From: an uncultured bacterium
GTDB taxonomy: Bacteria; Electryoneota; AABM5-125-24; Hatepunaeales; Hatepunaeaceae
Direction: 5' to 3'
DNA: 64,000 bases
NCBI GenBank assembly: GCA_964627035.1
Contig: CAZVKN010000002.1
Location: 11,206-75,205 of the forward strand
Shown here: piece by piece, positions 28,850 to 62,282 of the stretch
Layout: each line of letters begins with the position of its first letter
Position numbering within the stretch: the stretch's first letter is position 1
Made by a program: the position numbers and the translations under genes
The notes under the pieces: generated by a model
The model's input: only the letters and a program-made list of their open reading frames with translations
Databases searched by the model: none
What the model was told of the DNA's origin: nothing

Positions 28850-28960
28850 GTGATAAAGTAAGAAAGTGGGAAAGGAAGCAGGGAAGAATTTGATCAATGC
28901 TTCATCTTTCTTGTTTTTTACCTTCTCACCTTCTCACTTTCTTACTTACTTACTTACTTT
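28850..28960. repeat. Inverted-repeat element (AAAGTAAGAAAGTGGGAAAGGAAG ... CTTCTCACCTTCTCACTTTCTTACTTACTTACTT)
   Basis: Same GTAAGAAAGTGAGAAAG family as 677-754 and 49130-49160. Sits between two minus-strand kinase genes. Confidence 0.6.
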
Positions 28961-28991
28961 ATCAATGTTCGGATGCAATGATCGGTGCAGA

Positions 28992-38751: not shown

Positions 38752-38835
38752 TCCGCTGTCAACCCGTTGTGGTTGACAGCACAACTTTTGTAATATCAAT
38801 ATGATAGCTGTCAGGTGCGGCGACCTGACAGCGGG
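38752..38835. repeat. Double-hairpin repeat element, copy 2
   Basis: CCGCTGTCAACCCGTTGTGGTTGACAGC ... GCTGTCAGGTGCGGCGACCTGACAGCGG. Confidence 0.85.
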
Positions 38836-38861
38836 TTCTTCATATTCAGTAGTTTATCGTC

Positions 38862-39896: not shown

Positions 39897-40004
39897 TGAG
39901 ATTACTCCGTTCAGATTTAATTCACGTTTCTACTAAATATAAAACGAAGTGAAGAACCTGTCAATAGAGGATAGATTCTTCACTTCGTTTATCTATACTG
40001 TCGG

Positions 40005-40055
40005 GGAGGATGGACATTCCTGTCCATCCTGCAGTGACAGGAATGTCACTGCTCC
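40005..40055. repeat. Tandem GACATTCCTGTC-core palindromic hairpins
   Basis: GGAGGATGGACATTCCTGTCCATCC-TGCAG-TGACAGGAATGTCACTGCTCC. Confidence 0.8.
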
Positions 40056-43839: not shown

Positions 43840-43905
43840 GTCATTCCGAACTTGATCCGGAATCTCCTATATATCGTTGGAGATTCCTGCTTTCGCAGGA
43901 ATGAC
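43840..43905. repeat. Pair of ATTCCN-N8-NGGAAT palindromes (GTCATTCCGAACTTGATCCGGAATC; GATTCCTGCTTTCGCAGGAATGAC)
   Basis: Same architecture as the motifs at 51541, 54941, 55791, 57273 and 57324. Confidence 0.75.
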
Positions 43906-45887: not shown

Positions 45888-45955
45888 CCACGAAGTACAC
45901 GAAGATCACGAAGAAGAGAAGAGAAAAGGCTTCATGATCTTCGTGGTGAGAGTCT
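45888..45955. repeat. CACGAAG-heptamer palindrome (GCCACGAAGTACACGAAGATCACGAAG ... CTTCGTGG)
   Basis: Related copies at 49169-49240, 58822-58850 and 13137-13218. Confidence 0.7.
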
Positions 45956-46320: not shown

Positions 46321-49089
46321 ATGTTACGAGCAACTATCTATGTACTAATCGCACTTTTTCTGACCATCGGCTGCCAGGATGACGACAACCCCGTCGCGCC
46401 GCCTGTGCCGAAGTATGACATTCAAATCACCAACCTGCCGACATCAATCACCTCCCCCGAAGGCGTTAGCCATGAAGTGATCTTTCAGGTCACTGTCATC
46501 AACAACGCAACCAACGAAGTGGTCGAAGGAGCAGCCGTCGCTCTTGCCGTTCCACTCGGTCAGGGATCAATCACACCGCAAACCATGCCCACCGATGTGC
46601 ACGGAACCGTCGAAGCGATGTACAGTTTCGACATGCCGTCCGGTAAATCAACCACACCTATATTTATCACGGCGGAAAAGCAGAGCACTATCGCTATCAT
46701 TGTCCTTGACGGCACGACACGACCTGTTGAGCTGCTGCTGACTGCGGATGAGACGCTGCTGTTTCCTGAAGAGAATGAATCTGTCGAAGTCAACCTGACC
46801 GCTGCGGTGACTGACGAGCGCGGAATGGGGATTGCCGGAGTGAAGCTTTTCTTCGAGCTGATTGAAACGGAAGAAGACAGCACTTACGGAGCGTTAACCC
46901 CGATATCAACGACTGATAAAGAAGGTCTGGCTCAATCCACCTTCCGTTCGATGGGCGGACACGGAACCATACACATCCGCTGTTCGGTGGATGAAGGAGA
47001 AGACTTTCTCGATGTCAAGGATGAGGTGGCGATCAGGATCGTTGAACCCTTGCAGGGAGGAATACTATTTCTCAATGCAAGTGAGAACTACATCTATGCC
47101 GATAACGGTGTAACAGATGCCATTGTTCGCGCGGTATTAAAGGACAGGTCGAATCAAGCCATTGAAGGGGCAGAGATTATCTTCTCATCCAATAACAACG
47201 GCGCGATTAGCTCACCGCATACCACCGATTCACTGGGAATCGCACTCTCAGTATTCACCGACATCGGTATCCCTTCGATGAACGCACTCGGAGAAAGGGA
47301 ACCGTGCACGGTAACAGCCTACTATTACCGCCTTGGTTTGGCAGAATCCATCGAAATTGATATCCGTCCACAGGAACATGTGGACAACATCGTGCTGGCA
47401 GCCGGAAAAGCTACGATGCATGCCGGCAGTCGTGATACAACATGGGTCAGAGCTACGTGTTTCCTTGATCGTTCTCGAACTCAGTTAGCCCCTGAGGGTA
47501 CGATGGTGTACTTCGAGCAGGATAACTGGATGGGGTCATTCACGCAATCACAAGTTCCGGTAGGACGCACCGGTACTGCACAAACCGCATATGTTGCAGG
47601 TACTCAAGTTGGGCAAGCCATAATTAGAGCTATTGTAGTGAATGAAGATTGGGAGTATGTTCACAGCAATGAAGTAATCATTGACCTGATCCCCGGTGCG
47701 CCTGCAAGCATTTATGTTCAATCCAACCCGTCGGTTCTGCGTATCGGTGAAGCGGGTGAGCAGTCAATGATTCTCGCTTCTGTCGTTGATTCATTCGGCA
47801 ACCCGGTCAGGGACGGTTCGGTTCTCGTTCAGTTCTCAACAACTCTCGGAACGGTTGATCCACCGTCAACTCCGACAGATTCGGGTCATGCAATCGCATT
47901 CCTTCGTCCTGGTGTCGAGGCAGGAGTAGCTATTGTCCGTGCAACCGTTTTGGGATTAGAACCTGCTGAAACGGCGGTGTCATTCATCGCCGGAGGAGGG
48001 AGTTCTATTAATCTCGGTGTTGATGATTTACAGATTCCAATTGGTGGATTCACCAGAATCCATGCTACTGTCCGCGATGCTAACGGTAACCTCATTGAAG
48101 TACCGACTAAGGTTGTTATTGTTCTGCTGACAAATGATGTGCCACCGGAAGCTGGCAACATAAATGGGAATGATCCATTCTACTGCGATACCGTTTACAC
48201 CTCAAATGGAATAGCAACATTTACATTCAATGCAGGAACCCGAATAGGACCACAACTGATCCGAATATATACTCTTGATGAGGATGGAAATCCAACCGGA
48301 GTTCGTGCAACCATTAGTACTCTGATGGTCGTCGGCGGACCTCCGGCTATTCTTTCACTTGGCTGGGAAAATGACGTTCGTGATGCCGGAGGAGGAAGCT
48401 GGATACTTCCGGTATCAGCACATATAACGGATCAATACCGTAACCCCGCGAGGGATGAAATCGTCGTAAATTTCAGAGTTGATCCGGTCGGTTCTATCGA
48501 AAGTCATGCATTTACAAACGGTGGACGGGCTGTTGTTGATCTGACATATCACAGCGAGCATGTCTTTGAGGAAGTTACAGTCACCGCTTATCTTCTGACC
48601 GAGGACGACTCACTCGGACAGACGTTGACCTTCCAGTTGCCTTTCCAAGGTGGCGAGCTTGAGCTGCATGTTGATCCGAACAACTGGATGTTTGACAGAG
48701 ACGAGCCGGATAACATTTGTGATATCCGGGTGTGGGCGATCCTGCATGATGGACACGGAGTTTTGATCAACAATGCACCGATACTGTTCACATCTATTCG
48801 AGGTAAGTTTTGGTATGACAATCGCGCCGGAGATCAGGTGGACTTTGAGATCTTTGAACCTCGACCTGTCAGACGACACACCGGACCTGTCAATGACGGT
48901 GGCAATCCCAACGAGCGACAAAATGACGATGATCCGGACGGTCATGCGGTAGTATGGCTGAGAGGAATAATGGACGACTTCTTCCTCGATCCGTTCAGTA
49001 TGGAGGTGACAGTCCAGATCGAGGCGAATGTAGAGGGTTACGACGATGTATTCGCCAATCCTGCATTTGTGGTGATGACGAGGCATTGA
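46321..49089 (+). CDS. Large lipoprotein with repeated bacterial Ig-like (Big) domains
   Basis: Lipobox MLRATIYVLIALFLTIGC. Repeated about 90-aa beta-rich segments (GxxTVTA..., AIVRATV). Confidence 0.55.
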   Translation: MLRATIYVLIALFLTIGCQDDDNPVAPPVPKYDIQITNLPTSITSPEGVSHEVIFQVTVINNATNEVVEGAAVALAVPLGQGSITPQTMPTDVHGTVEAMYSFDMPSGKSTTPIFITAEKQSTIAIIVLDGTTRPVELLLTADETLLFPEENESVEVNLTAAVTDERGMGIAGVKLFFELIETEEDSTYGALTPISTTDKEGLAQSTFRSMGGHGTIHIRCSVDEGEDFLDVKDEVAIRIVEPLQGGILFLNASENYIYADNGVTDAIVRAVLKDRSNQAIEGAEIIFSSNNNGAISSPHTTDSLGIALSVFTDIGIPSMNALGEREPCTVTAYYYRLGLAESIEIDIRPQEHVDNIVLAAGKATMHAGSRDTTWVRATCFLDRSRTQLAPEGTMVYFEQDNWMGSFTQSQVPVGRTGTAQTAYVAGTQVGQAIIRAIVVNEDWEYVHSNEVIIDLIPGAPASIYVQSNPSVLRIGEAGEQSMILASVVDSFGNPVRDGSVLVQFSTTLGTVDPPSTPTDSGHAIAFLRPGVEAGVAIVRATVLGLEPAETAVSFIAGGGSSINLGVDDLQIPIGGFTRIHATVRDANGNLIEVPTKVVIVLLTNDVPPEAGNINGNDPFYCDTVYTSNGIATFTFNAGTRIGPQLIRIYTLDEDGNPTGVRATISTLMVVGGPPAILSLGWENDVRDAGGGSWILPVSAHITDQYRNPARDEIVVNFRVDPVGSIESHAFTNGGRAVVDLTYHSEHVFEEVTVTAYLLTEDDSLGQTLTFQLPFQGGELELHVDPNNWMFDRDEPDNICDIRVWAILHDGHGVLINNAPILFTSIRGKFWYDNRAGDQVDFEIFEPRPVRRHTGPVNDGGNPNERQNDDDPDGHAVVWLRGIMDDFFLDPFSMEVTVQIEANVEGYDDVFANPAFVVMTRH

Positions 49090-49125
49090 GATTCACAACG
49101 GATTGAACGGATGAAGCAGATTATT
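49090..49125 (+). repeat. Post-stop-codon motif GATTCACAACGGATTGAACGGATGAAGCAGATTA
   Basis: Starts at the nucleotide after the TGA stop. The same motif, in the sense orientation, follows the stops of genes ending at 51428, 55071, 55858 and 57493. Confidence 0.8.
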
Positions 49126-49168
49126 AGGGAGCAAGGGAGAAGATGAGAAAGTAAGAAAATCATTTATC

Positions 49169-49240
49169 ACCACGAAGTTCACGAAGCGCACGAAGAAGAA
49201 ACAGATTAAACACTTCGTGTCCTTCGTGCTCTTCGTGGTT
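49169..49240. repeat. CACGAAG-heptamer long palindrome (CCACGAAGTTCACGAAGCGCACGAAGAAG ... CTTCGTGTCCTTCGTGCTCTTCGTGG)
   Basis: Three heptamer units per arm. Confidence 0.8.
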
Positions 49241-49295
49241 AAAACCTTGATTTCAGTTGTGAATCTCTAAAATACATGCAAAAGGACAAGAAACA

Positions 49296-51428
49296 ATGAA
49301 ACTGCTAATTAAATTACTATTGATAGCTGTAGCTCTGCTTGGGTTGTGGTCAGGTGAATCCTTCGCTGAACCACCGACGTATTACACGTGGTTGACCCAC
49401 TTTGAGCGGACTCGCTTCAATGAATACATAAGGTTTTGGGAAAGGGATTCATCATTTGGCACAATCAGATCTAATGATTATATCGCAATTATGGGTAATC
49501 CGCTGTTAGGATTGGTCATTACGTCGCAGGATCGTTTCATTGGGAATAATGAAAACCTGAACTTTGAGCATATCTTCAACGCTCCCCCCTACGAGTTCCC
49601 GGAGTCGTATCCGCATCTGAGGCATCGAGCCAGTCCTCGCATTTCAGATATAAACGGCAGAATGATGACCCGGATAAGAATGTATGGTAATGGAGGAATA
49701 GAATTCTATCAACATCCACTGGGTAATCCTCACGGTGACAGTTTGGTGATGTCAATTGCTGCACCATACAATCGAATTATCTATGTAGATGGTCAGGTGG
49801 AAGTTGAAGGAGTGCTTGCCGGTCGAGTGACAATCTATTCCTCAGGCGAAATGTGGCTGGTTGATGATATCCGTTATGTAGGTGCTGACCAACGAACCGG
49901 ACGTTTCGGCAGGACACGAGAAGAAATGCGGGACTTCCCACACGTGCTGGGTTTGGTGTCGGATCAGAATATTATCATCAAGAACACAACTGCAAACGGT
50001 CGTGAGAATGGATGGGCTTTTGGTGGACAGGTCAACAGAACTGATAGGCATTCCATCGTCATCAATGCTGCATTGATAGCGTTGAATGAGTCGTTCACAT
50101 TCCAGCACCAAAACGATAGATTCAACCGCTATCAGGGACCTACACCGGATGACCGCGGCATAATCCACCTGACCGGAGGTGTAACTCAATATCGGCGCGG
50201 GTATGTGCATCGGTCAAATCATCAGAGTACAGGTTATGGCAAAGATTACATGTACGACTACCGCTTAGAGACAACAGGACCGCCGGGATTTGCACCGGGT
50301 GAGTATCCTGATGTCAGCGGCAACTATGACGTACTTGACCTGTTCGTCGGTCCTTATACACTGCAAAACACTCACGCCCGAAAGGTCATTATCCGCCGTG
50401 GTGTCGAGGTCAACCTGATGGGTGGCAATTCGCTGACCGTGCGCGATAGTTTGATCGTTGAGGGAACGGAGGAAGAACCTGTCACTTTTCGCTCAGTGCT
50501 ACAAAACGGAAGGAGCAGGATTGCGGTCAACGGGCATAACCGCTCGCTGATTGATTTGAACCATGCTACATTTAGCCGGAATGTCACGGTCAGAATGCAG
50601 GCGAATAGCATCGTTGTGAATAACTGCGAATTCGGAACGGATGCCGATTTTGAAGGGAATGTTACACTCAACAGCAGTCGTTTCAATGAACAAGTACGCA
50701 TCATTGCATGGGATGATGTTTCAATCAGCAGGTCATTGTTCATGGATGGGATCACATTGACAGGCAACCTCCGCAACGGTGAACTGATTAACAACACCAT
50801 ATCAGGCGGCAGGTCAGCCGGAGTTGAGATTCATCGCTTTGACAGCCTTCGACTCGTCAATAACATCATCAGTGACAACCGCTACGGCATCGTCAACCGT
50901 CACTGGAACCGACCGACCGTTGAGTATTGCGATGTTTACGGCAACCGCAGTGGTGATTACATAGATTGTGAGCCGGGGGAGGGCTCAATATCGGTCACTC
51001 CTCGCTTCATTGATCCCCGCAATGACAACTATCGTCTTGCATGGAACTCGCCCTGCATTGACGCAGGTGACCCGGCTTCACCGCATGATCCGGACAGCAC
51101 ACGAGCTGACATCGGCGCATTCTACCGTGATCGGAACCTGAGCGTATCGGACGCGCCGACAGTTCCGGATCAGTTCAGAGTAACAGCATCGCCGAATCCG
51201 TTCAACAGCACTGTAACGGTTCAATTCACTCTGACTCACTCAGAGACTGCTCGGTTAACAATCTATGACCTACAAGGACGGAAAATCCAATCACAACGAG
51301 AGACCTTCACAGCAGGGGTCGGAAAGATAACGGTTAGCGGTGAATTGCTGGGCAGTGCGGGTGTCTATTTTGCGCGCCTGTCTGCTGGAGATCAGGTAGG
51401 AACAGTTAAGTTGGTGTATGTGCCGTAG
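49296..51428 (+). CDS. Right-handed parallel beta-helix protein with a T9SS C-terminal sorting domain
   Basis: Signal peptide. Repeated NxxIxxN beta-helix turns (NNIISDNRYGIVN). C-terminus PNPFNSTVTVQFTL...AGVYFARL...VKLVYVP. Confidence 0.65.
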   Translation: MKLLIKLLLIAVALLGLWSGESFAEPPTYYTWLTHFERTRFNEYIRFWERDSSFGTIRSNDYIAIMGNPLLGLVITSQDRFIGNNENLNFEHIFNAPPYEFPESYPHLRHRASPRISDINGRMMTRIRMYGNGGIEFYQHPLGNPHGDSLVMSIAAPYNRIIYVDGQVEVEGVLAGRVTIYSSGEMWLVDDIRYVGADQRTGRFGRTREEMRDFPHVLGLVSDQNIIIKNTTANGRENGWAFGGQVNRTDRHSIVINAALIALNESFTFQHQNDRFNRYQGPTPDDRGIIHLTGGVTQYRRGYVHRSNHQSTGYGKDYMYDYRLETTGPPGFAPGEYPDVSGNYDVLDLFVGPYTLQNTHARKVIIRRGVEVNLMGGNSLTVRDSLIVEGTEEEPVTFRSVLQNGRSRIAVNGHNRSLIDLNHATFSRNVTVRMQANSIVVNNCEFGTDADFEGNVTLNSSRFNEQVRIIAWDDVSISRSLFMDGITLTGNLRNGELINNTISGGRSAGVEIHRFDSLRLVNNIISDNRYGIVNRHWNRPTVEYCDVYGNRSGDYIDCEPGEGSISVTPRFIDPRNDNYRLAWNSPCIDAGDPASPHDPDSTRADIGAFYRDRNLSVSDAPTVPDQFRVTASPNPFNSTVTVQFTLTHSETARLTIYDLQGRKIQSQRETFTAGVGKITVSGELLGSAGVYFARLSAGDQVGTVKLVYVP

Positions 51429-51608
51429 GAAATTCACAACAGATGAAACGGATTAAGCAGATTAAAGCGGGGATGGCGGACATTCTTGTCCGTCTGCATG
51501 GACAGGAATGAGTTCTTTGATTTATTCAGAAAACCTTCGCGTCATTCCCACGAAGGTGGGAATCCAGTCCTACATTGACTTTCTGGATTCCCGTTTACAC
51601 GAGAATGA
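51429..51608. repeat. Composite modular repeat: post-stop motif, GACATTCTTGTC palindrome, AATGAGTTCTTTGATTTAT, then GTCATTCCC-N8-GGGAATCCAG
   Basis: Each module is also present at 53155-53200, 57205-57350 and 54941-54970. Confidence 0.8.
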
Positions 51609-51778
51609 CGAAAGATATCAAACTACTTAATATTTCAGTGAACTCATCCCCGTCCTCTCTTGCAGGAGCAACAATATCCCAACTCACCCGTCAAAAGAAC
51701 GCATGAGACAAGAGTTGCGCTTGTCATCTGTTATTATTAAATTTATACTCTGCTACAATCTGTTACTGTTTTCAACAC

Positions 51779-52355: not shown

Positions 52356-52790
52356 TCAGATCAACTCACGTAGCCAGTCCATATCTATATTCGGGCAGGT
52401 GCGGTTGTCGCCGGACAGCTCATAGTGACCGATCAGCTCTGCATCGGGATACTCTTTCCTCAATCGCCGGATCAGATTGGTCACAGTCTCAAATTGATGC
52501 ATCGTGAACTGCTTTTTTCCAATGAGACAGATGCCGATGCTGCTGCTGTTGTATCCTTTCGCATGTGCACCGATTACTTCCATCGGTCTCCCGATCTGCG
52601 CAGTTCCATCCAACCAGAATTGAGGTTGCTTTAATTTGAACACTTCCTCTGTCGGATATCCGTTCATAATCACATAATGATACCCGATCCGGTCGTACCC
52701 ACACTTGCGATGCCACTCGTCGATCAACGCAACGTTCCCGTAAGGTGAGTCGCTGCAATGAAGTATAATTCGATTAATATTTCTCGTCAT
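52356..52790 (-). CDS. N-acetylmuramoyl-L-alanine amidase (Amidase_2/PGRP, T7-lysozyme-like endolysin)
   Basis: ILHCSDSP...GYHYVI...IGAHAKGYNSSSIGICLIG...CPN zinc-ligand pattern. Start taken at MTRNINR (52790). Confidence 0.75.
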   Translation of the reverse strand: MTRNINRIILHCSDSPYGNVALIDEWHRKCGYDRIGYHYVIMNGYPTEEVFKLKQPQFWLDGTAQIGRPMEVIGAHAKGYNSSSIGICLIGKKQFTMHQFETVTNLIRRLRKEYPDAELIGHYELSGDNRTCPNIDMDWLRELI

Positions 52791-52801
52791 GTCGTTGTCC
52801 T

Positions 52802-53065
52802 CTATTGAATAAACAGCTTGAACAGAGCAACCGCGATACCGACCGCAAGGCTCGCCATGACACCCCAAAGCCTGTATTCACGCCGTTCTATCTTGACTCT
52901 GAATGCGCTGTTTCTATCCACCTTGTGAGTCAATCCATCGTGACCGTTGCCGTTGAGCATCCTGTAGATGTTTTTAACATCATCTTTCACCTCTTTGACA
53001 TTATCGTGGATCATCTGTATTAGTTCGTTATTCATGGTTTGTTGATTTGTGTGATTTTCAATCAA
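52802..53065 (-). CDS. Lysis-associated small membrane protein (holin-like, single C-terminal TM)
   Basis: 87 aa. C-terminal LWGVMASLAVGIAVALFKLFI. Immediately upstream of the endolysin. Confidence 0.35.
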   Translation of the reverse strand: MIENHTNQQTMNNELIQMIHDNVKEVKDDVKNIYRMLNGNGHDGLTHKVDRNSAFRVKIERREYRLWGVMASLAVGIAVALFKLFIQ

Positions 53066-53154
53066 GTCATTGCGAATCCACGTAGTGGGTGAAGCAATCT
53101 CTTCGTATTATGTAAGAGATTGCTTCGTCAATCCTTTCCTCGCAATGACAGAAG

Positions 53155-53290
53155 TCCATGCAGAGCGGACAGAAATGAGTTCTTTGATTTATTACTGATT
53201 TCGTTATTCCCGTGCCGTGTGGCATTGGCTACTTGTTGCCAATGTTTCTTTATTAATGAAACACGGGCAATGAATAGCCCGTGCCACCCA
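53155..53290. repeat. Modular repeat plus conserved two-hairpin element A (CATTGGC-TACTTGTT-GCCAATG; CACGGGC-AATGAATA-GCCCGTG)
   Basis: The second copy at 54985-55050 has compensatory stem changes (CATGGGC/GCCCATG) and a conserved TACTTGTT loop. Confidence 0.7.
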
Positions 53291-53293
53291 AAG

Positions 53294-53593
53294 TCACTCC
53301 CCTTCAGACAAAAACCGATACCCATTCACCTCAAGGAATTCATCAAAATCCATCCCACTCCCCGTCGAGCAAGCAATGCAGTACAATCTATCCGAAAGAT
53401 CGTACTCGCCCCAGATTGCGCCGGCGTAAGCTACAACTGTTGTCGTGTCTGCGAGTGTGCATAGTTGAACTGTCGCCACGTCAGCAGGAGCTTCATGCAC
53501 TTCATTGTTCGAATAGATAAAAAACGTCTGCGCATCCTCGGTCAAACCTATTAGTGGCAACATTAAGATCAATATTGTAACTACATATCTCAT
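53294..53593 (-). CDS. Small secreted hypothetical protein
   Basis: Signal peptide MRYVVTILILMLPLIGL. Confidence 0.4.
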   Translation of the reverse strand: MRYVVTILILMLPLIGLTEDAQTFFIYSNNEVHEAPADVATVQLCTLADTTTVVAYAGAIWGEYDLSDRLYCIACSTGSGMDFDEFLEVNGYRFLSEGE

Positions 53594-54405
53594 TGGTATA
53601 ACCTGTATTTTCGGTTCAGATAGCTGCGAATCCGCTTCACATCAGCAGAAGACAGCTTGCTTCCGTCACAAAGGATGTATTCAGCGAGATAACCACCGAT
53701 GTAGTTCGTCCAACTGATTGAGCCGAAGTAATCCATCTTCCACGATTTTCCACTATAACCTGTCGCAACTCCGTCAACAGTCCCGTTCCAAAATCGGTTG
53801 AGGTTGTCGCCTTCAGCCTGAAACTCCAGAAGACCATAAGAAGTAGTCGGTTGAGTAACACCTGTCATCGTTCTGTACACACCTCCGTCGCTTCTCATGT
53901 CCAGCGATCCGGCTCCGGTTTGGCGTATCATCGTGTCGTTCACATCTCCATCCGCAAAAATGAATGCACGCTCATAGGTCGTGCTGGTGAACAGGATCAC
54001 TATGAAGTGATGAGGTGACGACAACGTAACAGCACCGTCTGAAAGTTGATAAGTATCATCAACCTCATCAAACTGCAGAGCAGGACGACCGTTGATTTGG
54101 TTGATGTTGTACAGAGCACGTTTGGAGGCGCTCGGCGGCTGCCCGTCACTTCCGTTGCCGGATCTATCTGTCCACAGCGAACATTGACCGGACGCATCGG
54201 TATAAACTCCGCTTGACGCATCCCACCAGATCTGAACCACATCGCTTCCAAGTTTTGCAGGGGTCCATTCGAGCGCTGTCTCTGTCCCCAAATCCCGTTG
54301 GATTCGACCCCACGAACTATCTCGTCCCCACTTTCCCGAACCTGACAGGACGATCAGGAAGATAAATAGTGTTACTATCTTTACTGTTCGCATATCAACT
54401 TCCAC
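53590..54405 (-). CDS. Secreted hypothetical protein (phage-region)
   Basis: Signal peptide MRTVKIVTLFIFLIVLSG. Beta-rich. Confidence 0.4.
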   Translation of the reverse strand: MEVDMRTVKIVTLFIFLIVLSGSGKWGRDSSWGRIQRDLGTETALEWTPAKLGSDVVQIWWDASSGVYTDASGQCSLWTDRSGNGSDGQPPSASKRALYNINQINGRPALQFDEVDDTYQLSDGAVTLSSPHHFIVILFTSTTYERAFIFADGDVNDTMIRQTGAGSLDMRSDGGVYRTMTGVTQPTTSYGLLEFQAEGDNLNRFWNGTVDGVATGYSGKSWKMDYFGSISWTNYIGGYLAEYILCDGSKLSSADVKRIRSYLNRKYRLYQ

Positions 54406-54911
54406 TCAACTTCAAACGTGTCATCAACAGTGGTTGCGAAAACCATGCGCACATACCCGCCCACAAATAGCCGCAAGGGATACAGGTAGTAACGGTTGGT
54501 GTCTTCCAACGGTTCAAATCGCCAGTTGCCGTACTGGTAATGCGTGAACGTTCCGGAGTCTATGAAGACATTGGATGAGTCCGCATTCCAGAACTCGGTT
54601 GCGGTGGTGTCGTATATCTGCTCAAAGTATGCGTCACTCAACTGTGCTGTATCGCCTTGAACAGAGGTCAACAGCAATGCCAGCGTGAACGACTCCGGAT
54701 TGTACTGACGGATATTATGGTTGTCTCCATCTGATGCGTTCGGCGAATATCCGACCTGCAGCCAAGATGTGGTGTATCCACCTGATGTTCCTTTGACCGT
54801 GTCAACTCCGGTCATGATTTTGGGCATGGTGGTCAGCAGACCGGTAACATCCTGCCCGAATGCCGGTATGACTGCGACAAATATCAGCAATGCTATGATT
54901 AGTTGTTTCAT
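54381..54911 (-). CDS. Secreted hypothetical protein (phage-region)
   Basis: Signal peptide MKQLIIALLIFVAVIPAFG. Confidence 0.4.
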   Translation of the reverse strand: MKQLIIALLIFVAVIPAFGQDVTGLLTTMPKIMTGVDTVKGTSGGYTTSWLQVGYSPNASDGDNHNIRQYNPESFTLALLLTSVQGDTAQLSDAYFEQIYDTTATEFWNADSSNVFIDSGTFTHYQYGNWRFEPLEDTNRYYLYPLRLFVGGYVRMVFATTVDDTFEVEWKLICEQ

Positions 54912-54940
54912 TGATATATCTCCTTGAATAGTTGTATTCC

Positions 54941-55085
54941 GTCATTCCCGCTCAGGCGGGAATCCAGTTATATCGTGTGGCACGGGTTACTTGTTACCTG
55001 TGTATCATTACTTAAAGAAACATGGGCAACGAGTAGCCCATGCCACACGGATTCCATCTGTTTAATTCGTTCAATCCGTTGTGAA
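54941..55085. repeat. GTCATTCCC-N8-GGGAATCCAG, then two-hairpin element B, then post-stop motif (minus sense)
   Basis: GTCATTCCCGCTCAGGCGGGAATCCAG. GTGTGGCACGGGTTACTTGTTACCTGTG...CATGGGCAACGAGTAGCCCATGCCACAC. ...TTCAATCCGTTGTGAATTC overlaps the stop of the 55071 gene. Confidence 0.75.
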
Positions 55086-55769
55086 TTCCCTCTCCTCAGG
55101 AATCCCGCGATAGACAATCCCTCCAAAACGGAAGCGAGGCATATTGTCCTTTTGGTGAATCATCGCTTCAGACAGCTCGAATCCGGTGCCGGGTTGAGCA
55201 CCTCTGTACACAAACGATCCTTCCGTCACCCGGAGCACATCATCGTAATGGAAGTAGCACAGTTGTCCGTCATACTCTCGTCCCGGTATATGTTCACAAC
55301 GACGAATGTCATTGTCACAGATAACACAGGTCGGTTTGCGGAAAGTGAATCCCAATGAAGCTTCGCTGTAGATGCCTCCATCAATTGAAACCCGCAGGTC
55401 TTCCGCATTGGAATGATTCTTCATCCAGTAGAATTTCGGCACTATGTATGTGATGTCGCTGTCAGTGTCATGCTCAAGCTCACCACCGAAGAACCGAGCA
55501 ATTCCAAGCGTGTCCTTTCGATGACCGATCAAAGCCGGAGCACCCTGAACCAGTTCAAGCAGCTTGCTCATGTCTTCGGAGCGGAATCGTCCGAAACCCG
55601 CATCCACAGCATCTCCTGCGAGCCTGCACCGACGAACATAGACGTCCTTTGCCGTGACTTTCATCAGCGGTGGATTTGGCAGGCTGTTGATAGCCTCAAT
55701 ATCCGATTTCAGCACCTGAGTCTGTGCAGGCAGCAACACGCCTGAAAGTTCTCTGTATATCCAGTCCAT
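55071..55769 (-). CDS. Hypothetical phage-region protein (Cys-rich C-terminus)
   Basis: 232 aa. CVICDNDIRRCEH...CYFHYDD. No confident family. Confidence 0.35.
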   Translation of the reverse strand: MDWIYRELSGVLLPAQTQVLKSDIEAINSLPNPPLMKVTAKDVYVRRCRLAGDAVDAGFGRFRSEDMSKLLELVQGAPALIGHRKDTLGIARFFGGELEHDTDSDITYIVPKFYWMKNHSNAEDLRVSIDGGIYSEASLGFTFRKPTCVICDNDIRRCEHIPGREYDGQLCYFHYDDVLRVTEGSFVYRGAQPGTGFELSEAMIHQKDNMPRFRFGGIVYRGIPEEREFTTD

Positions 55770-55790
55770 CTGTTTGTCTCCTTTTAAATT

Positions 55791-55857
55791 GTCATTCCTG
55801 CGAAGGCAGGAATCCAGTCTTAAATCCGTTTAATCCGTTCAATTCGTTGTGAATCTC
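55791..55857. repeat. GTCATTCCTGCGAAGGCAGGAATCCAG plus post-stop motif (minus sense)
   Basis: Directly abuts the stop of the 55858 gene. Confidence 0.75.
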
Positions 55858-57165
55858 TTACCCCGTCGCTCTCTGATAACCCATCTCCCTCGCTCCCTCA
55901 TCTTTCGAGATGTAGCCGTTCTTTACTTTCATATCTATGTTCTGTAGTTCGATACTGTGCGTCTTCGCCCTATCCAACCGGAACGGGTCGGGATGCGAAT
56001 CGAAACTGTGCTTAACTGATGCTTTGACTCCTCGCAGTTGCAGCTCAAGATTGCTGATCCAATTAACCAAATCAGCTCCCGACTTCTGATGCGATGCCAC
56101 AATCTGCATTAACAGGTCGTATTGCGACCGCATCCAATTACGCGCATTCTTGTGAGATCTGCCGAGCACCCAAGGATACAACCGCAGCCCGGTGATGACA
56201 TCCTCGATGACCTGCTCGCGGTTTAGCCTCCATGCAGCCTGATGTCCGGTCTGACCGACAACCGTCACTTCAACATCACTCCAGGTGAATATGTTGTCGT
56301 CCGGTTCAAGGAACTGAAATTCTTTGACCACATCATTGAAATACTGATTCGCTCGTGAAGCATATCCGTTATCTTCTTCCCAGTCAAATTGAGTCGGACG
56401 GGAAACCTTGACTTGAAGTCTGGGGGTGCCCGAATTGTGACTCGAACGCGCCATATCCTCAAGCATCATCTGTTCAACCTCAGTGACAAACGGGATGCAG
56501 GCAAGAGGTTCAACACCGGACGGATTGGACAGATCCGATCCTATCACACCATAAAAGAACAGGTCAGGATCGAATTTCTCCTTGTTGTCATCTTCATCGG
56601 TGACATAAGGAATCCAACCGCGCTTGCTATGCTCCCATGAAACCGTGAAGGGATCAATGTAGCGGAAATGATCCACAGACTTGCCGTCCGCACTCAGTAC
56701 CGCTTCTCCCGCAAATCGCCCGGTTGTGAACAGCTCGAGGAAATAGCCTTCCGTCAATTTAACCAATCCCGAACCGCGTCCATACGGCATTTCGAGTATC
56801 CGACGGTCAAGATCGTTGAGCAGTTTAACGGCTTGCTGCCGTTCCTCGCTGTTGCCCTCAACCGTTTGCGTCATCTTAGTTGCGCACAGCCTGACCCACG
56901 CCCAGATACCGGATGAAAGAATCGGGATATTATCACGCATCCATCGGTAGAAATCACCTTGATTGCTACCGCTATAGTAGAACGGACGCGAACCGTAGCT
57001 TGTCATGGTTCGTCTTAATGCCCTCGGCTGCCAATTCCTTCGCGGTGTGTATGGGGTTGCCTCAGTCGGTGCGACCGTCGGTCCCGATGCGAGGTTCGTT
57101 CCTCCACGCACTTTGATTAGACGATCAAGTACTGCACCTCGTTTACGTTTTTTCCAAAGCTGCAT
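55858..57165 (-). CDS. Putative phage portal protein
   Basis: 435 aa, immediately downstream of the terminase large subunit. Size and position fit a portal. No unambiguous motif. Confidence 0.4.
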   Translation of the reverse strand: MQLWKKRKRGAVLDRLIKVRGGTNLASGPTVAPTEATPYTPRRNWQPRALRRTMTSYGSRPFYYSGSNQGDFYRWMRDNIPILSSGIWAWVRLCATKMTQTVEGNSEERQQAVKLLNDLDRRILEMPYGRGSGLVKLTEGYFLELFTTGRFAGEAVLSADGKSVDHFRYIDPFTVSWEHSKRGWIPYVTDEDDNKEKFDPDLFFYGVIGSDLSNPSGVEPLACIPFVTEVEQMMLEDMARSSHNSGTPRLQVKVSRPTQFDWEEDNGYASRANQYFNDVVKEFQFLEPDDNIFTWSDVEVTVVGQTGHQAAWRLNREQVIEDVITGLRLYPWVLGRSHKNARNWMRSQYDLLMQIVASHQKSGADLVNWISNLELQLRGVKASVKHSFDSHPDPFRLDRAKTHSIELQNIDMKVKNGYISKDEGAREMGYQRATG

Positions 57166-57204
57166 TTATGTCTCCTTGATTTTTTGTTGGTGTAATTATC
57201 CAAT

Positions 57205-57470
57205 GGGGAGCAGCGACATTCCTGTCGCTGTAGCGGGAACAGGAATGAGTTCTTTGATTTATCATCTATTTTGTCATTCTGGTGAAAGCCAGAATCCAGT
57301 AAATAATTGGAATCACTGGATTCCCGCCTGCGCGGGAATGACGTGAATGGGCAAATTTATGAATATTTCAAAGGTCTCATTCTTGTCCATGTTTTGCCGA
57401 CAGGAATGTCGGCACTCCCCGATACATTTGTTTAATCAGTTCAATCCGTTGTGAATCCGGCACGGGAATC
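57205..57470. repeat. Large composite of modular repeats (GACATTCCTGTC palindromes x2, AATGAGTTCTTTGATTTAT, two ATTCYS-N8-GGAAT motifs, post-stop motif)
   Basis: All modules are shared with the elements at 51429, 53155 and 54941. Confidence 0.8.
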
Positions 57471-57492
57471 ACAAAATCACCTAATCACAAAA

Positions 57493-58812
57493 TCACCTCG
57501 GCAATCCCACCACCTGCGCCTTCGACCAGCCGCCTCGTTTCAGTTCAATCAGATTGATTATCAGATACCTGAGCGCATCAACAGCGTGGTCATGTTCACC
57601 GTCCTTGAGTGGTTTATCCTTGCCGCTGTCCCAACGATAGTGTCGGATATGATGCAGGCTTTTGGGTGCTGTCGGTGAAAATCGCAGATTTACACGTCCT
57701 GCAGCATCTTTCAACTGAGATTTCAACAGATCAATGCCGGTCATGATCTCAGATTTGCGATATCTGATCTTGAATTCGCGCTGTTTCAACCGCTCAACTG
57801 CTGATATACCGCTGTCCGTCATCGCAGCACCAGCAGGATCACATCCACTCCACTCTACGTCATCCTCCCTGATTCCGTGCTTCCTGTCAACATTTCTGAT
57901 AGCTACGATCATCTCATCGACAGTCGCATCGTAACCTTCCCATTCGTCGAATAGTGTCAGCGATCCGTCCGGTGACCGATGCACCCACACCACATATGGA
58001 TGGCGGTAGCCGAAATCTATCCCGCGGTAACTCTTGCCCGAATCACGCCTCCACTTGAATGGAATTGACAGAAGGTGCAATTGCGGATCATACTCATCGA
58101 ACACACGATTTGACAGAACATCAAAATCAATCTCATACTCCTGGCGCCAACGGTTTTCCGATAGTCCACGCTTCGCTTCTATCTCCCATGCTTCATCTCT
58201 TTCAGGATGCTCTTTCCAATGGAGCGTCTGTTTCCCAAAGCCGTTATCGTCGTTGAACAGGCTGTAAAAGATATTGTCCGTTCCGTTTGGTGTGGATACA
58301 CCGATAAAACTTCCACCGGAATCAATCGCAGGCTTCAACGCTGTCCAGATTCCTTCCGAGTACGGTGTGAAAGCCATCTCATCCCAGAAAACACAAGTTG
58401 GGCTGTGCATTCGAGGTGCTGATTCGGTAGCAGGCAGCGCAATAATTCTCGTTTGGGACGGAAAAACCACCTCTTCGCTCTTTACTTTTATATCCGTGTG
58501 ATCCGGTAGATTTTTAATCATTATTTTGAGCCGTTTTATCAATTCTCCACTGTCACGCTTTCCTTTTGACAGCAGCAGATATATACCCGGATCATCGTAC
58601 AGCGCACGGAACAGGATATATGCTGACACCGTCCAGGTTGCCATCATTTGGCGCGACTTGGCGACCATTAAAATACGGTGTTCCGCAAGAACATTTACCA
58701 ACTCCCGTGTAAACTGATAATCGGGAAACGGCTTAACACCCCCAACAGCATCCAAAGTGCAGACGCTTGATCTTACCCACTTCCAAACTGTCTCAGCGTC
58801 AATCATAAGCAT
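57493..58812 (-). CDS. Phage terminase large subunit
   Basis: ATPase: deviant Walker A VAKSRQMMAT and Walker B CVFWDEMAF. Nuclease: GIDFGY...DGEHDHAVDALRYLI C-terminal motif. Confidence 0.7.
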   Translation of the reverse strand: MLMIDAETVWKWVRSSVCTLDAVGGVKPFPDYQFTRELVNVLAEHRILMVAKSRQMMATWTVSAYILFRALYDDPGIYLLLSKGKRDSGELIKRLKIMIKNLPDHTDIKVKSEEVVFPSQTRIIALPATESAPRMHSPTCVFWDEMAFTPYSEGIWTALKPAIDSGGSFIGVSTPNGTDNIFYSLFNDDNGFGKQTLHWKEHPERDEAWEIEAKRGLSENRWRQEYEIDFDVLSNRVFDEYDPQLHLLSIPFKWRRDSGKSYRGIDFGYRHPYVVWVHRSPDGSLTLFDEWEGYDATVDEMIVAIRNVDRKHGIREDDVEWSGCDPAGAAMTDSGISAVERLKQREFKIRYRKSEIMTGIDLLKSQLKDAAGRVNLRFSPTAPKSLHHIRHYRWDSGKDKPLKDGEHDHAVDALRYLIINLIELKRGGWSKAQVVGLPR

Positions 58813-58865
58813 TCACAAAAACTTCGTGTTCTTCGCGCCCTTCGTGGTGATATCTCTCTTATTTC

Positions 58866-59711
58866 TTAGAACCATTCCCAGCTTTGATTCGCTTTTTTAG
58901 CACCGGAGTTCATCGCCGGGATCTTCATAAACGGTCTTAATGTGTGCCATGCGGCGGTCTGATATGTCAGAGCCAACTCGCGCCATGCGCGCGCACGCCC
59001 TTCAGCAGACGTTCCGCCGTCAGAAACTGCCCGTGAAGCCAAAGCCCTGCACAGAACAGAGAGTGTCAGCTCAGTAGCCCCGGTGATCAAGCCTTGATCG
59101 CTCGATGAGTCGTTATAGTCATCCTTCAGACGCGCCAGAATTTTATCCTCTGCCTGAGTAATTGCCTGCGAAATCAAGTCATCCACACCGGACGCTGCTG
59201 AAAGCTGATAGTCAACCAATACTGTGGTGTCCGCTTCCAATGATCCGGCTACTTTGACAGTTAGTTCTCCCGTCGCATAGTCAATGGTGTAATCAATATC
59301 TTTGGTCATCACCTCATATCGCTGATAGTACAGTTGCACTGCAGAGCCGTTTGATATTGCCCCACCATCAATTCGACGAATTTTGCCATCTGTCCAGTTG
59401 ATCGCATAGTCAACACCTTCGAGATAGACAGTTTGTAATCCGTCATCCTCTGCCACTACTGCTTGGTTCGGCACGAGGTTGTCATAGGTTAGCTGCACCC
59501 AGGTCTCATCATTAAGTGTCACACCTGACTGTTCTGTCGGCTCAACCGACATTAGTCTCTTAACCGATTCGCTCGATGTAACTATACCACGATGCGGGAG
59601 CTGCGCATTACCGTCATTGTCAAATTGGATTCGAACATCATTAAACTCGGTCAAAACCTGATCCAGATCTATCAGATGTTTCCTGACGCTTGTTGTATCT
59701 GTCCACGACAT
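58866..59711 (-). CDS. Hypothetical phage-region protein
   Basis: 281 aa. No family recognised. Confidence 0.35.
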   Translation of the reverse strand: MSWTDTTSVRKHLIDLDQVLTEFNDVRIQFDNDGNAQLPHRGIVTSSESVKRLMSVEPTEQSGVTLNDETWVQLTYDNLVPNQAVVAEDDGLQTVYLEGVDYAINWTDGKIRRIDGGAISNGSAVQLYYQRYEVMTKDIDYTIDYATGELTVKVAGSLEADTTVLVDYQLSAASGVDDLISQAITQAEDKILARLKDDYNDSSSDQGLITGATELTLSVLCRALASRAVSDGGTSAEGRARAWRELALTYQTAAWHTLRPFMKIPAMNSGAKKANQSWEWF

Positions 59712-59724
59712 TATCTACTCCTCC

Positions 59725-60090
59725 TTAAATCAGTTGTATATGTACGGTTGCATACAGACTCGAATTTTGAGATAGTCCTGCTGCGACAAGAGTTGAGTTA
59801 ACTCCGTTTATCCGTACATAAACGTCGAAATTACCACCGTTCACTTGTGCATAGAGTGAGATTCTGTCTCCCTGTGCTGCAGCTATATTACCGCTGCCGG
59901 ACAGAATTCCCGATCCGTCCCAGCAATCAATCCGGTATATTCTGGCATTCTGAGGTAACGGGAAACCGTCCCCTCCTTGTCCACCTGCTCCTTTGAGATA
60001 GGTGGATGATGTGGTAACTGCATCCGAGAAGCAAAGCAGCATCTTCTGTCGTTTTGACAGCAGGTAGCTGAGTGTTCGGTTTAGTGACAT
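59725..60090 (-). CDS. Hypothetical phage-region protein
   Basis: 121 aa. Gly-rich. Confidence 0.3.
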   Translation of the reverse strand: MSLNRTLSYLLSKRQKMLLCFSDAVTTSSTYLKGAGGQGGDGFPLPQNARIYRIDCWDGSGILSGSGNIAAAQGDRISLYAQVNGGNFDVYVRINGVNSTLVAAGLSQNSSLYATVHIQLI

Positions 60091-60176
60091 GTTTGATCCT
60101 TACGTATCTGTTGTTGCTAACTAATTTATAATAATTCAATTGCACTTTAAACTTCTTCATTTTATATTCATTGCAT

Positions 60177-60259
60177 GCGGAGGGTAAGAAGCTGGGCTTC
60201 GCGTTGCTTGATACACAACTGGACTGAAAAGTTCGGGGTTCGATTCCCCTGCCCTCCGC
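60177..60259 (+). tRNA. Atypical tRNA-like element (83 nt): 7-8 bp acceptor stem, GGGG-TTCGATT-CCCC T-arm, possible GAU anticodon loop
   Basis: GCGGAGG(G)...CGGGGTTCGATTCCCCTG-CCCTCCGC. Stem 27-31/39-43 with loop TTGATAC. The D-arm and variable region are non-canonical. Confidence 0.4.
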
Positions 60260-60640
60260 TTGTTCCGAAGAAAAGTCAAATAATTCCTTTTTTTACTTGA
60301 CAACGGTATTATTTATTATTACGTTATAATCGTATCAAGCAACACCAAGAGGCACCAGCCTTTTGGAATCGAGCTGTCCGTGAGGTTTCAAATGATCACG
60401 GATTATCGTGCGGGACGGAATTTAACCGTCCCGCACTTTTTTTGCCGTTCAGGATCCCGATGCTTCTCTATGCATTCAATCCCGATCCTTCACAGCATCT
60501 GTTCTTCAGGGGAAGCTCAGAGGCTTATTAAAATTTTTCCTCTATATGTCCCCTGAAGAACAGTTTCCTGCGTCAACCCACCCCGGTCAACACAACTCTT
60601 TAACTGCGGTGTCAACACGCCGCGGTTGACACATTTATGC

Positions 60641-61693
60641 TTAGTAATCCGACAGCAACGCAGCGTCATCCACCATGATGGTGTAAACCGACTCCTTCGA
60701 CACCACCGCCTGCTCCAGCTTCTGATTGATCACCTTGTCAACATCAATCATCAGCGGTTGCGTGACCGATTCACGCACCGCAAACCGACTGTCGAGCCCG
60801 ATGACTTTGGTAGCGGTCGCATTCGGAGCAATCACCAGTCTTGCATTCACCGGCAGGAACGAATGGTAGTTACCAGTCTTGGTAAACAGCTCATTTTCCC
60901 GCCACGCCTGAGCATCCTGGAACTGTGACAGATTAATGATGGTCTCGACATCATTCTTGGTGGCGATGATGTGTGTCATCCGTGCCGGAACGTCAAAAGA
61001 CATTGCCAGATGCACCAGATCACTATACGCAAACGTCCCGGCGTTGCCGTCGAATACATCGCTCGCTCCATCCGACGTGCCGTCACCGTCGAGCAGGATG
61101 TTATACATCTCGTCAATCTCGTCATAAGCCATCTGTGCACCGATCCACCACAGGAACACCCGAAATTCGGTCAGCTTCTGATTGCGGACGATCCGATATG
61201 AGAAGTCAAACTCACGACCTCGGTCAATGATGTTCGCCTCCTTGTCCCGATACAGCAACTCAACACGCGGATATGCCGATCCTGCGCTCTTCTTCGCCAG
61301 TGACTCTTTTGCCTTGGTCGTCTTGACATAGATCGGACGAACGGTCGGACCGCTTTCCAGCGAAACGGATGCTACCAGATCTGTCGGATTCTGCACCATT
61401 TTGTAACCACGCTGGATTTCGCGCAGCACGTACTCCGGCAGCAGTATCAATCCACCACCGACGAAAAACTGCTCCATGCTGATGGACTTTGATCCTTCCG
61501 CGAGAATCCCGTTCAGCATGAGCTGTCTTTCAAACGCATCGAGTCTGCTGTCCGATTCGCTTGGATCAATCTGCTCCAGCAATTCACTGAACGTCAGATT
61601 CTGCTCCTGTGCTTCAGCATACAGTGACAGATTCCCTGCTCGGGAATGCTGCACAATCAGCTCGCCCAGTTTATTTGCTTCACTCATAATCAT
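60641..61693 (-). CDS. Putative phage major capsid-like protein
   Basis: 350 aa, in the size range of HK97-fold capsid proteins. No signal peptide. Followed by a palindromic terminator-like repeat. Confidence 0.35.
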   Translation of the reverse strand: MIMSEANKLGELIVQHSRAGNLSLYAEAQEQNLTFSELLEQIDPSESDSRLDAFERQLMLNGILAEGSKSISMEQFFVGGGLILLPEYVLREIQRGYKMVQNPTDLVASVSLESGPTVRPIYVKTTKAKESLAKKSAGSAYPRVELLYRDKEANIIDRGREFDFSYRIVRNQKLTEFRVFLWWIGAQMAYDEIDEMYNILLDGDGTSDGASDVFDGNAGTFAYSDLVHLAMSFDVPARMTHIIATKNDVETIINLSQFQDAQAWRENELFTKTGNYHSFLPVNARLVIAPNATATKVIGLDSRFAVRESVTQPLMIDVDKVINQKLEQAVVSKESVYTIMVDDAALLSDY

Positions 61694-61743
61694 TCCTTAT
61701 TGTTTAGTTGTTTACTTGTCCTCGCGCAAAGTCACCTTCTTTG

Positions 61744-61795
61744 GGAGGACGGACATTCCTGTCCGTCCCGCAGCGACAGGAATGTCGCTGCTCCT
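61744..61795. repeat. Tandem GACATTCCTGTC-core palindromic hairpins
   Basis: GGAGGACGGACATTCCTGTCCGTCC-CGCAG-CGACAGGAATGTCGCTGCTCC. Confidence 0.8.
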
Positions 61796-61841
61796 CAACT
61801 ATAAATACTTTGCGCCTTAGCGTTCTTTGCGTGAGTTCATC

Positions 61842-62282
61842 TTATCCCAGCCACACGTCACATGTAGTGTCAGTCGTGTTGACCGCAATTACCTGCCCGC
61901 GCATCAGATGGCCACCTGCTGCGATATCAACGTCTGCAGCAGCCTGCCTCACTTTACCTGCACCGTCAACCTCGACCATCTGATTGATGACCGGAGTGGT
62001 TGCGGCATATTTGAACCTCGCTACACCGCGAGCCTGAACCGCACACAGCGACGGAACCGTTGTCCCGTCCTGTAGCTGCTGTGACACCCATACAACCTTG
62101 CCGAACAGCTTGTCACCTGCGGCTCCCATCCCGATTTCGTTATCATCGGAGATAACACATGCCGAAAGGTTATTGTCCAGATCATCCTGGATGAAGTCTC
62201 TGTCTGCAGTTGTGTCAACACTGAATGTCAGGAACGGTGTCCCGCCGATTCCACTGTTGTCAATTTGAAACGGACTACTCAT
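61842..62282 (-). CDS. Hypothetical phage-region protein
   Basis: 146 aa. Ala/Gly-rich. Confidence 0.35.
   Translation of the reverse strand: MSSPFQIDNSGIGGTPFLTFSVDTTADRDFIQDDLDNNLSACVISDDNEIGMGAAGDKLFGKVVWVSQQLQDGTTVPSLCAVQARGVARFKYAATTPVINQMVEVDGAGKVRQAAADVDIAAGGHLMRGQVIAVNTTDTTCDVWLG

Follow-up and report, generated by a model that had tools for sequence, protein, structure and literature searches.

A purine-rich, stop-proximal motif and its mosaic repeat neighbours in an uncultured FCB-group bacterium

The window described here is the whole 64,000-nt stretch of DNA that was analysed, taken from the metagenome-assembled genome (MAG) of an FCB-group bacterium. It belongs to ENA ERZ23499079 scaffold_32 (187 kb), and its sequence recurs in JGI assemblies, the scaffold being identical to 3300009374 Ga0118720_1000050 across 21 kb of compared DNA. 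It carries a 922-aa Big_1/Invasin_D3 gene, a 710-aa beta-helix gene with a Por_Secre_tail domain, and a phage-like cluster on the minus strand (52356-62282) that encodes a major head protein, large terminase, portal, virion structural protein and amidase, together with a 232-aa protein. Assignments by Pfam and PHROGs (Big_1/Invasin_D3, Por_Secre_tail beta-helix, TerL and portal) uphold the labels given in an earlier note on this DNA (Big-domain, beta-helix T9SS, portal and terminase), which had drawn attention to a motif recurring behind five of the genes. The gene order of the phage-like cluster is kept in at least six related genomes (the window and the relatives L109, L111, L129, L130 and L131), homologues of its 232-aa protein lie on contigs of up to 5 Mb, and its spacers are colonised by host repeat families; rather than a recent prophage, the cluster may represent a GTA-like particle locus that has been domesticated. 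The terminase of L111 is divided between two ORFs (186 and 207 aa). Just upstream of the cluster lies an 81-nt tRNA-Ile(GAT)-like gene (60179-60259), with a tRNA-like sequence at the equivalent place in L109; Rfam gave no tRNA at gathering score across the window. Neither the motif nor any relative of the portal protein is present among IMG/VR viral contigs, and the motif is therefore not regarded as phage-borne.

The motif occurs in the window as five diverged copies, about 83-90% alike (c1-c5; Table 1), and since no further copies were found in the 14 kb examined outside the window, all five lie within 8.4 kb of the 78 kb of the source genome covered by this census. Three 9-nt words (NRATKRARC) follow an initial ATTCAC, and the sense strand is purine-rich. 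When the five copies are aligned with three from a relative, the start reads (G/A)ATTCAC, with TTCAC invariant, and is followed by invariant C..AT..A. columns every 9 nt. The consensus written in the earlier note, with one degenerate base, was too strict, because it matches only 49090-49123 even with 3 mismatches allowed; the core ATTCACAAC has 7 occurrences versus 0.9 expected. All five copies are in sense orientation relative to the upstream ORF, as had been described. They had also been placed, without exception, at or just after a stop codon, which holds for c1, c2 and c4 (0-2 nt past the stop) and for c3, which donates the stop, but not for c5, 35 nt past that of the terminase. The reported overlap of the 232-aa ORF with the motif is confirmed: c3 supplies its final five codons (EFTTD) and the TGA stop (55071-55073), so that the protein ends in ...PEEREFTTD*. 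If the copies were placed uniformly in the five spacers, the observed positions would have a joint chance of ~3e-9, a value that overstates the significance because the copies are not fully independent. A sixth, variant copy lies 117 nt past the stop of the gene at 12527-13108, behind another palindrome. A replication-linked strand bias of the IS200/IS605 type is ruled out, as copies occur on both strands within 8.4 kb and track gene direction.

Table 1. Motif copies and associated repeat modules in the window (positions are those of the window).
Feature	Position	Strand	Remarks
Motif copy c1	49090-49123	+	GATTCACAACGGATTGAACGGATGAAGCAGATTA; 0 nt past TGA (49087-49089) of 922-aa Big_1/Invasin_D3 gene (46321-49089)
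Motif copy c2	51431-51464	+	2 nt past TAG (51426-51428) of 710-aa beta-helix Por_Secre_tail gene (49296-51428)
Motif copy c3	55087-55053	-	ORF of 232-aa gene (55071-55769) reads through motif
Motif copy c4	55855-55821	-	2 nt past TAA (55858-55860) of portal gene (55858-57165)
Motif copy c5	57457-57423	-	35 nt past TGA (57493-57495) of large terminase gene (57493-58812)
GTGATTTT/GTGATTAG 8-nt word array	57467-57498	-	Overlaps terminase stop; fills gap before c5
Sixth, variant copy (GATTCACAGCAGATGCAGCAGATTAGCAGATTTAG; ATTCACAGC + AGATGCAGC words)	13226-13260	+	Sense to gene 12527-13108
CACGAAG/CTTCGTG hairpin	49165-49241	+	Three 9-nt words per arm; nested in c1 palindrome
Module B, REPIN-like hairpin (GGGGA..GGACATTCTTGTCC..GGACAGGAATGAGTTCTTTGATTTATT)	51472-51527	+	After c2
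Head-to-head CGTC-1/dRS3-type REP dimer	51538-51611	+	CGTC ATTCCCAC GAAG GTGGGAAT CCA ... TGG ATTCCCGT..ACGAGAAT GACG
CGTC-1/dRS3-type REP (CGTC ATTCCCGC TCAG GCGGGAAT CCA)	54939-54967	+	Distal end of c3 spacer
Long hairpin module (CCGTGTGGCATGGGC...GCCCGTGCCACACG)	54973-55050	-	Between c3 and REP; related copy at 53215-53252
CGTC-type REP variant (GTCATTCCTGCGAAGGCAGGAATCCAGT)	55791-55818	+	After c4; junction AAGAYTGGATTCC also in relative L109
Palindromic composite B - CGTC-REP dimer - B'	57205-57420	-	After c5; collinear with modules after c2
Distal inverted remnant of c1 (TTCAGTTGTGAATCTC)	49252-49267	+	Pairs with first 12 nt of c1; p=0.003
Possible degenerate distal arm of c2	51745-51775	+	Far end of spacer, just before next start codon; p=0.023, weak
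Exact CGTC-1/dRS3 hairpins (CGTC + ATTCCCNN + 4-nt loop + NNGGGAAT + CCA)	43850-43905, 51538-51611, 54939-54967, 55791-55818, 57272-57343		Often head-to-head dimers
REPIN-like doublet family (GGGAG-stem-ACATTCCTGTC-stem...GACAGGAATGT...)	24273-24324, 40004-40055, 51472-51510, 57205-57262, 57363-57420, 61743-61794		Loops conserved
Tandem-word modules AAGTAAG, CGCAAAG, CACGAAG	667-694, 2714-2762, 28848-28962, 45889-45950, 58817-58851, 61797-61835		(A/C)TCAC prefix in common with motif

The whole window is rich in repeat modules, many of them hairpins of tandem 8-9-nt words (AAGTAAG, CACGAAG, CGCAAAG and GTGATTTT), and the repeat clusters are especially dense in the conserved phage-like head and packaging operon. 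The sequences at c2 and c5 are collinear over ~190 nt, comprising the motif, a REPIN-like hairpin (GACATTCCTGTC loop, with compensating stem changes) and a head-to-head CGTC-REP dimer, and a CGTC-type REP also lies downstream of c3 and of c4; the earlier description of a different set of downstream modules for each copy does not hold. The dimer takes the hairpin form CGTC-ATTCCCGC-loop-GCGGGAAT-CCA, which fits the published definition of a CGTC-1 REP (CGTC tag, 8-bp stem starting with AT, 4-nt loop and CCA tail; PMC3733652). The dRS3 form ATTCCCN8GGGAAT has 4 matches versus 0.19 expected, all in motif spacers (51544, 51587, 54944 and 57320) and downstream of the motif only, with the stop codon on the upstream side. 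The relatives L109, L111 and L130 contain CGTC-1/dRS3 variants with other stems (GTCATTGCGA... and GTCATTCTGG...).

Among the REPIN-like doublets, stems vary by compensating changes (e.g. GGATGGAC/GTCCATCC versus GGACGGAC/GTCCGTCC), and GACATTCCTGTC, found in this family, has 9 matches versus 0.46 expected. The AAGTAAG, CGCAAAG and CACGAAG modules usually form hairpins in which the purine-rich arm leads (about 6 to 1 in the window); several contain a stop or begin within 10 nt of one, the TAA of ORF 169-672 lying inside the first AAGTAAG word. The long ORF 2763-5723 starts within a AATCACNN word array (2795-2839), its true start codon probably lying downstream of the repeat, and the JGI and ENA gene calls for it disagree (961 versus 985 aa). 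A tRNA-Asp with the unusual anticodon ATC, called by ARAGORN at 38762-38838, falls inside repeat family D1 (copies at 6928, 38749 and 45984) and was probably called in error from a palindromic repeat.

The predicted RNA folds of the four long spacers are very stable compared with shuffled sequence (z = -3.6 to -7.7), and yet they leave the motif essentially unpaired at c2, c3 and c5; at c1 no more than its first 12 nt are predicted to pair. The partner of c1 is its distal inverted remnant, making the spacer 49088-49267 one large palindrome that encloses other modules. No target-site duplication (TNA included) and no clear terminal repeats were found around the window copies. Scanning of the window with Rfam 15 gave 0 matches at gathering thresholds, and at a relaxed E-value chance matches to miRNA hairpins only. 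No convincing sense-strand T-tract terminator was found in the motif spacers, their sole sense-strand terminator-like match being weak and part of the B module behind c2 (51481-51510, tail AGTTCTTTGA); a terminator of canonical form is present at 60408-60445. DnaA boxes, CRP/IHF sites, CsrA GGA, Hfq ARN, RNase E RNWUU and Shine-Dalgarno-like sequences were compared by eye, and no one of them suits every copy or the sister word modules.

Calditrichota-like genomes contain many homologues of the 232-aa protein, and five syntenic loci were compared with the window. A profile search of 150 kb (the source genome and the five syntenic relatives) returned 9 motif-like copies, 9/9 sense and 0 antisense (p=0.004, or p=0.016 with orthologous pairs counted once), 8 of them within 35 nt of a stop. 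Periodic purine-rich segments lie within 50 nt of 11/70 gene 3' ends versus 1/72 gene 5' ends, whereas a strict periodicity threshold (>=0.8) alone gives no separation (6/70 versus 4/72); the difference appears only when purine-richness is required, partly because palindromes look alike from both ends.

The comparison with related genomes, a check that the earlier note had proposed, showed that the same post-stop sites carry variant or different modules in L109 and L111. In L109, motif variants (ATTCACAGC) lie 6-9 nt past the stops of a 281-aa gene, the terminase and the portal gene; the portal copy is likely orthologous to c4, given the same downstream junction, and the terminase copy occupies a position equivalent to that of c5. 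As c2 and c5 are moreover copies of one composite, the five insertions, previously taken to be independent, number fewer than five independent events. The 232-aa gene has an L109 orthologue that terminates in PEER* and is not followed by a module. L111 contains a different word module (GAAGAGG-CTCACGCAAAG-ATCGCAAAG-GTGCAAAG-GTGTTTTAAG, then the same B hairpin) after the terminase, the portal gene, a 97-aa gene and a 146-aa gene, and this module is fused to the 232-aa orthologue too, whose C-terminus is ...PEEAHAKIAKGQRCF*. The module after the 146-aa gene has an orthologue in the window at 61797-61835; the L111 module makes up the outer arms of a palindrome around B. More distant relatives carry other purine-rich words directly after stops (GGATGAA, TTTTCAAGTT and CTCACCACGAAG), or GTAG-headed REPs instead. 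The window, L111 and L109 therefore differ in the modules that follow the same genes at 81-85% amino-acid identity in the 232-aa orthologue, and the variant or unrelated word modules at the same post-stop positions indicate local turnover of the repeats; within the cluster of each genome, the word modules are locally homogenised. The contigs of strains L107, L108 and L126 are 99.99-100% identical and show no presence/absence polymorphism.

The distribution of the family at large was surveyed with a degenerate 27-mer fitting c1-c5, searched against 185,579 species-representative genomes. It was found in 105 DNA stretches in about 14 species-level MAGs, nearly all Calditrichota/Electryoneota-like; outside these, there were single matches in Zixibacteria and Ignavibacteria, and a further one, probably fortuitous, inside an ORF. 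The usual form in other MAGs is the 5' arm of a long near-perfect palindrome (70-100 nt) or part of a larger repeat unit, and of all 115 copies, the five of the window among them, 44 are matched by a reverse-complement partner no more than 300 nt away. Of the 110 copies in other MAGs, those that are unpaired and flanked by co-directional genes divide, on crude ORF calls, into 17 sense versus 18 antisense, and, on the same calls, 3/87 have a co-oriented stop within 20 nt. A scan of JGI metagenomes with a TTGAAC variant gave 13 matches, none from the source genome, which behave in the same way. The non-random placement argued for in the earlier note thus stands in the lineage of the window (9/9 sense, 8/9 within 35 nt of a stop) but not in the other MAGs, where position and orientation are as indifferent as its author had said would count against a link to stop codons. 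Its argument against MITE-like spread fails for the family as a whole in the face of the 17:18 orientation, the 3/87 stop-adjacent copies, the 44/115 palindromic copies and a MITE found in one of these genomes.

In this MAG, VGIO01 (Calditrichaeota K_DeepCast; L003-L099), a 163-bp unit (TACCAAGTCGCAA...TTGCAAATTGGTA) built around the motif and its inverted partner is present in at least 26 copies at 92-99% identity. The unit is bounded by terminal inverted repeats (TACCAAnTnGCA) and flanked, in 19/19 copies examined, by a 3-bp duplication of its TNA target (TAA 8, TTA 6, TGA 3 and TCA 2), and is on these grounds a bona fide IS5/Tourist-type MITE. At L045, the end of the upstream ORF, from crude ORF calls, falls at about the left TGA duplication of the MITE, which suggests insertion at a stop codon. 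The MAG JADHWD01 (BS750m-G18; L009, L026, L041, L064 and L082) contains the motif in head-to-tail arrays of 35-nt units, which start ATTCACA(A/G)(C/G) and continue with differing sets of 9-nt words (GAATTAAAC, GGATTAAGC and GTAATGAAG), with AAAAGGCAAAAGT words ahead of the arrays; this is a hierarchical repeat structure. The motif strings had no match in the searchable literature.

Mosaics of extragenic repeats are known from other bacteria. The CGTC-1/dRS3 REP super-family has been described from five phyla, alpha-Proteobacteria providing most cases (Di Nocera et al. 2013; PMC3733652), and in Neisseria the CGTC-1 REPs are the dRS3 repeats of NIME arrays (PMC3733652, PMC1797815), which vary between strains and are defined by dRS3 (ATTCCCN8GGGAAT) on both sides of an RS module (PMC1797815). 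As in NIME and BIME arrays, the spacers considered here mix short REP-type hairpins with other repeat families, the motif behaving as an RS or extrapalindromic module; exact dRS3-form sequences lie beside it, array content differs between close relatives at syntenic sites as it does in NIMEs (PMC1797815), and a module order recurs (motif, B and CGTC dimer at c2 and c5; motif and CGTC REP at c3 and c4). They differ in that the host is an FCB-group MAG and not a proteobacterium, that dRS3-form sequences lie on one side of the motif, downstream, and that it has 9-nt tandem words and, in this lineage, a strict sense, stop-proximal polarity, which has not been described for RS elements.

REPs between co-directional ORFs lie <20 bp from the end of the upstream ORF, often donating its stop codon (PMC3733652). 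GTAG/CGTC REPs and REPINs in general (PMC3733652; Bertels and Rainey 2011, PMC3116915) resemble the present elements in being high-copy and extragenic, mostly 3' of co-directional or convergent ORFs, at times stop-donating and often nested in longer palindromes, and modules C (CGTC-1) and B (doublet hairpins) of the motif spacers fit their definitions. The motif is likewise multi-copy, extragenic, close to the upstream 3' end and stop-donating, but in the window it is not a 20-40 bp stem-loop palindrome and has no unpaired GTAG/CGTC tag, the CGTC being carried by the neighbouring module C. REPs are associated with a RAYT (Y1 transposase) gene; in the 78 kb covered, none was linked to the motif. 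The likeness to IS5/Tourist-type MITEs is that of the VGIO01 163-bp element, with its terminal inverted repeats and TNA duplications in 19/19 copies; the window copies lack such termini and duplications, only c1 having an inverted remnant (p=0.003), and in the window the motif is a sub-module of larger mosaics and not a transposing unit.

The motif is probably the purine-rich head module of REP/BIME/NIME-type mosaic repeat clusters, which in this Calditrichota/Electryoneota-like genome occupy the gaps separating co-directional genes; on this reading it represents a new family within a type of element already known, rather than a novel signal for regulation. That the DNA of this family multiplies and is turned over follows from its occurrence elsewhere as a palindrome arm and as the core of a TNA-duplicating MITE, from the duplicated ~190-nt composite found here, and from the module differences between sister genomes. 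Spread would proceed through MITE transposition, duplication of composites and local gene conversion, and repeats would accumulate where they are tolerated, from the stop codon to the next ribosome-binding site. From the inverted remnants of c1 and perhaps of c2, we infer that palindromes as long as the spacer, with further modules nested in them, may once have existed in this lineage, the present copies being their outer arms on the stop side; the start-side arms would mostly have decayed because they would sequester the initiation region of the next gene. Only the purine-rich orientation would be tolerated inside operons, the pyrimidine-rich orientation being counter-selected. On the mRNA, the motif would form an unstructured leader of ~35 nt between the terminating ribosome and the very stable hairpins behind it, which probably resemble REP/BIME elements in blocking 3' exonucleases or marking sites of processing. 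REP hairpins of E. coli are reportedly such exonuclease barriers, and those within about 15 nt of a stop are said to lower expression of the upstream gene via ribosome stalling and tmRNA. The elements described here may resemble the latter in that translation of the gene ahead depends on how far the repeat lies from the stop codon; unlike in them, an unstructured 35-nt module parts the stop from the hairpins and, if anything, would prevent stalling. The motif itself probably has no specific signalling role, and any role at the RNA level is one that we purely infer.

The stop-proximal position might alternatively be a product of insertion chemistry and not of selection, the motif being the end of a mobile module that prefers stop codons via a TNA target (TAA/TGA) or purine-rich microhomology. 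The VGIO01 MITE, which duplicates TNA (TAA 8 and TGA 3 of 19) and has the L045 ORF ending at about its left TGA duplication, agrees with this, as do c1, lying directly after TGA, c4, beginning by TAA, the loss of the ancestral stop at the junction in c3 and in the L111 orthologue, and the GAAGAGG common to the L111 junction and the 5' end of the element. We nevertheless consider it unlikely. The window copies have no far-end duplication, TNA or other, and lack any convincing terminal repeat; the TAG ahead of c2 does not conform to TNA; distances of 20 to >100 nt separate the stop from c5, from two of the L111 composites and from the majority of copies in other genomes; and no transposase is linked to the window copies. 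A same-orientation repeat after several consecutive genes, starting at the stop as attC sites do and accompanied by strong hairpins, also recalls integron attC-like sites marking cassette boundaries, or intrinsic terminators behind each gene. Both proposals fail their defining tests and are rejected as next to impossible: the motif ends TCACAAC and GTTGTGA depart from RYYYAAC and GTTRRRY, the core sites of attC, the genes are not cassettes, as their order is conserved in at least five related genomes, and the hairpins are without sense-strand T-tracts, the canonical terminator (60408-60445) being elsewhere.

Two further proposals would give the motif a function of its own. According to one, the motif and its sister word modules are a stop-anchored, single-stranded cis-acting RNA element with 9-nt-periodic contacts, whose reader would be an oligomeric RNA-binding protein or an sRNA controlling termination, processing or stability of polycistronic transcripts, the words co-evolving with the factor. 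It is quite unlikely to be correct, although the motif is predicted to be unpaired in four spacers, its invariant columns recur at a 9-nt period across 8 copies, the lineage copies are 9/9 sense, purine-rich periodic segments are enriched at gene 3' ends (11/70 versus 1/72), the 27-mer is common to several phyla, and one slot is filled by differing word modules at orthologous sites (stop, AAGAG, xTCAC + words, TTWAAG, B hairpin). Against it are the 17:18 orientation and 3/87 stop proximity in other genomes, the common occurrence of the motif as a palindrome arm and MITE core, and the unrelated words at the same sites in the sister species, by which the motif sequence itself is not conserved; orthologous copies are, on a reading of the alignment, conserved no better than flanking coding DNA, there is no Rfam match, and no candidate binding protein was identified. 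The other and broader proposal, which we hold to be improbable, is that the purine-rich tandem-word modules (the motif, CACGAAG, CGCAAAG, AAGTAAG, GTGATTTT, CAAGTT and GGATGAA) are an undescribed class of stop-anchored 3' elements in Calditrichota/Electryoneota-like bacteria, with an xTCAC prefix and lineage-specific 8-9-nt words, read periodically by an oligomeric RNA- or DNA-binding factor, interchangeable at the post-stop slot and forming one device with the REP hairpins.

The reading as a head module of mosaic repeat clusters has points against it as well. The polarity in the lineage (9/9 sense; 11/70 versus 1/72) is stronger than neutral decay of palindromes predicts and is unseen elsewhere, the window copies are without target duplication or clear terminal repeats, and the 27-nt core, conserved across several FCB-group phyla with invariant positions recurring every 9 nt, could reflect a binding partner.

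These observations extend REP/BIME/NIME-type mosaics, textbook CGTC-1/dRS3 hairpins included, to a poorly studied FCB-group lineage, and document a repeat family of 9-nt words common to about 14 MAGs. They are also of use in annotation, as the modules extend or end ORFs (...EFTTD* and ...AHAKIAKGQRCF*) and produce spurious tRNA and ORF calls. The polarity in this lineage, where modules are sense-only and stop-proximal and sister genomes fill the same slot with different words, makes it tractable to ask whether the places in which selfish repeats survive are shaped by selection on operon mRNAs, and if a binding factor for the word modules exists, the case would be considerably more interesting.
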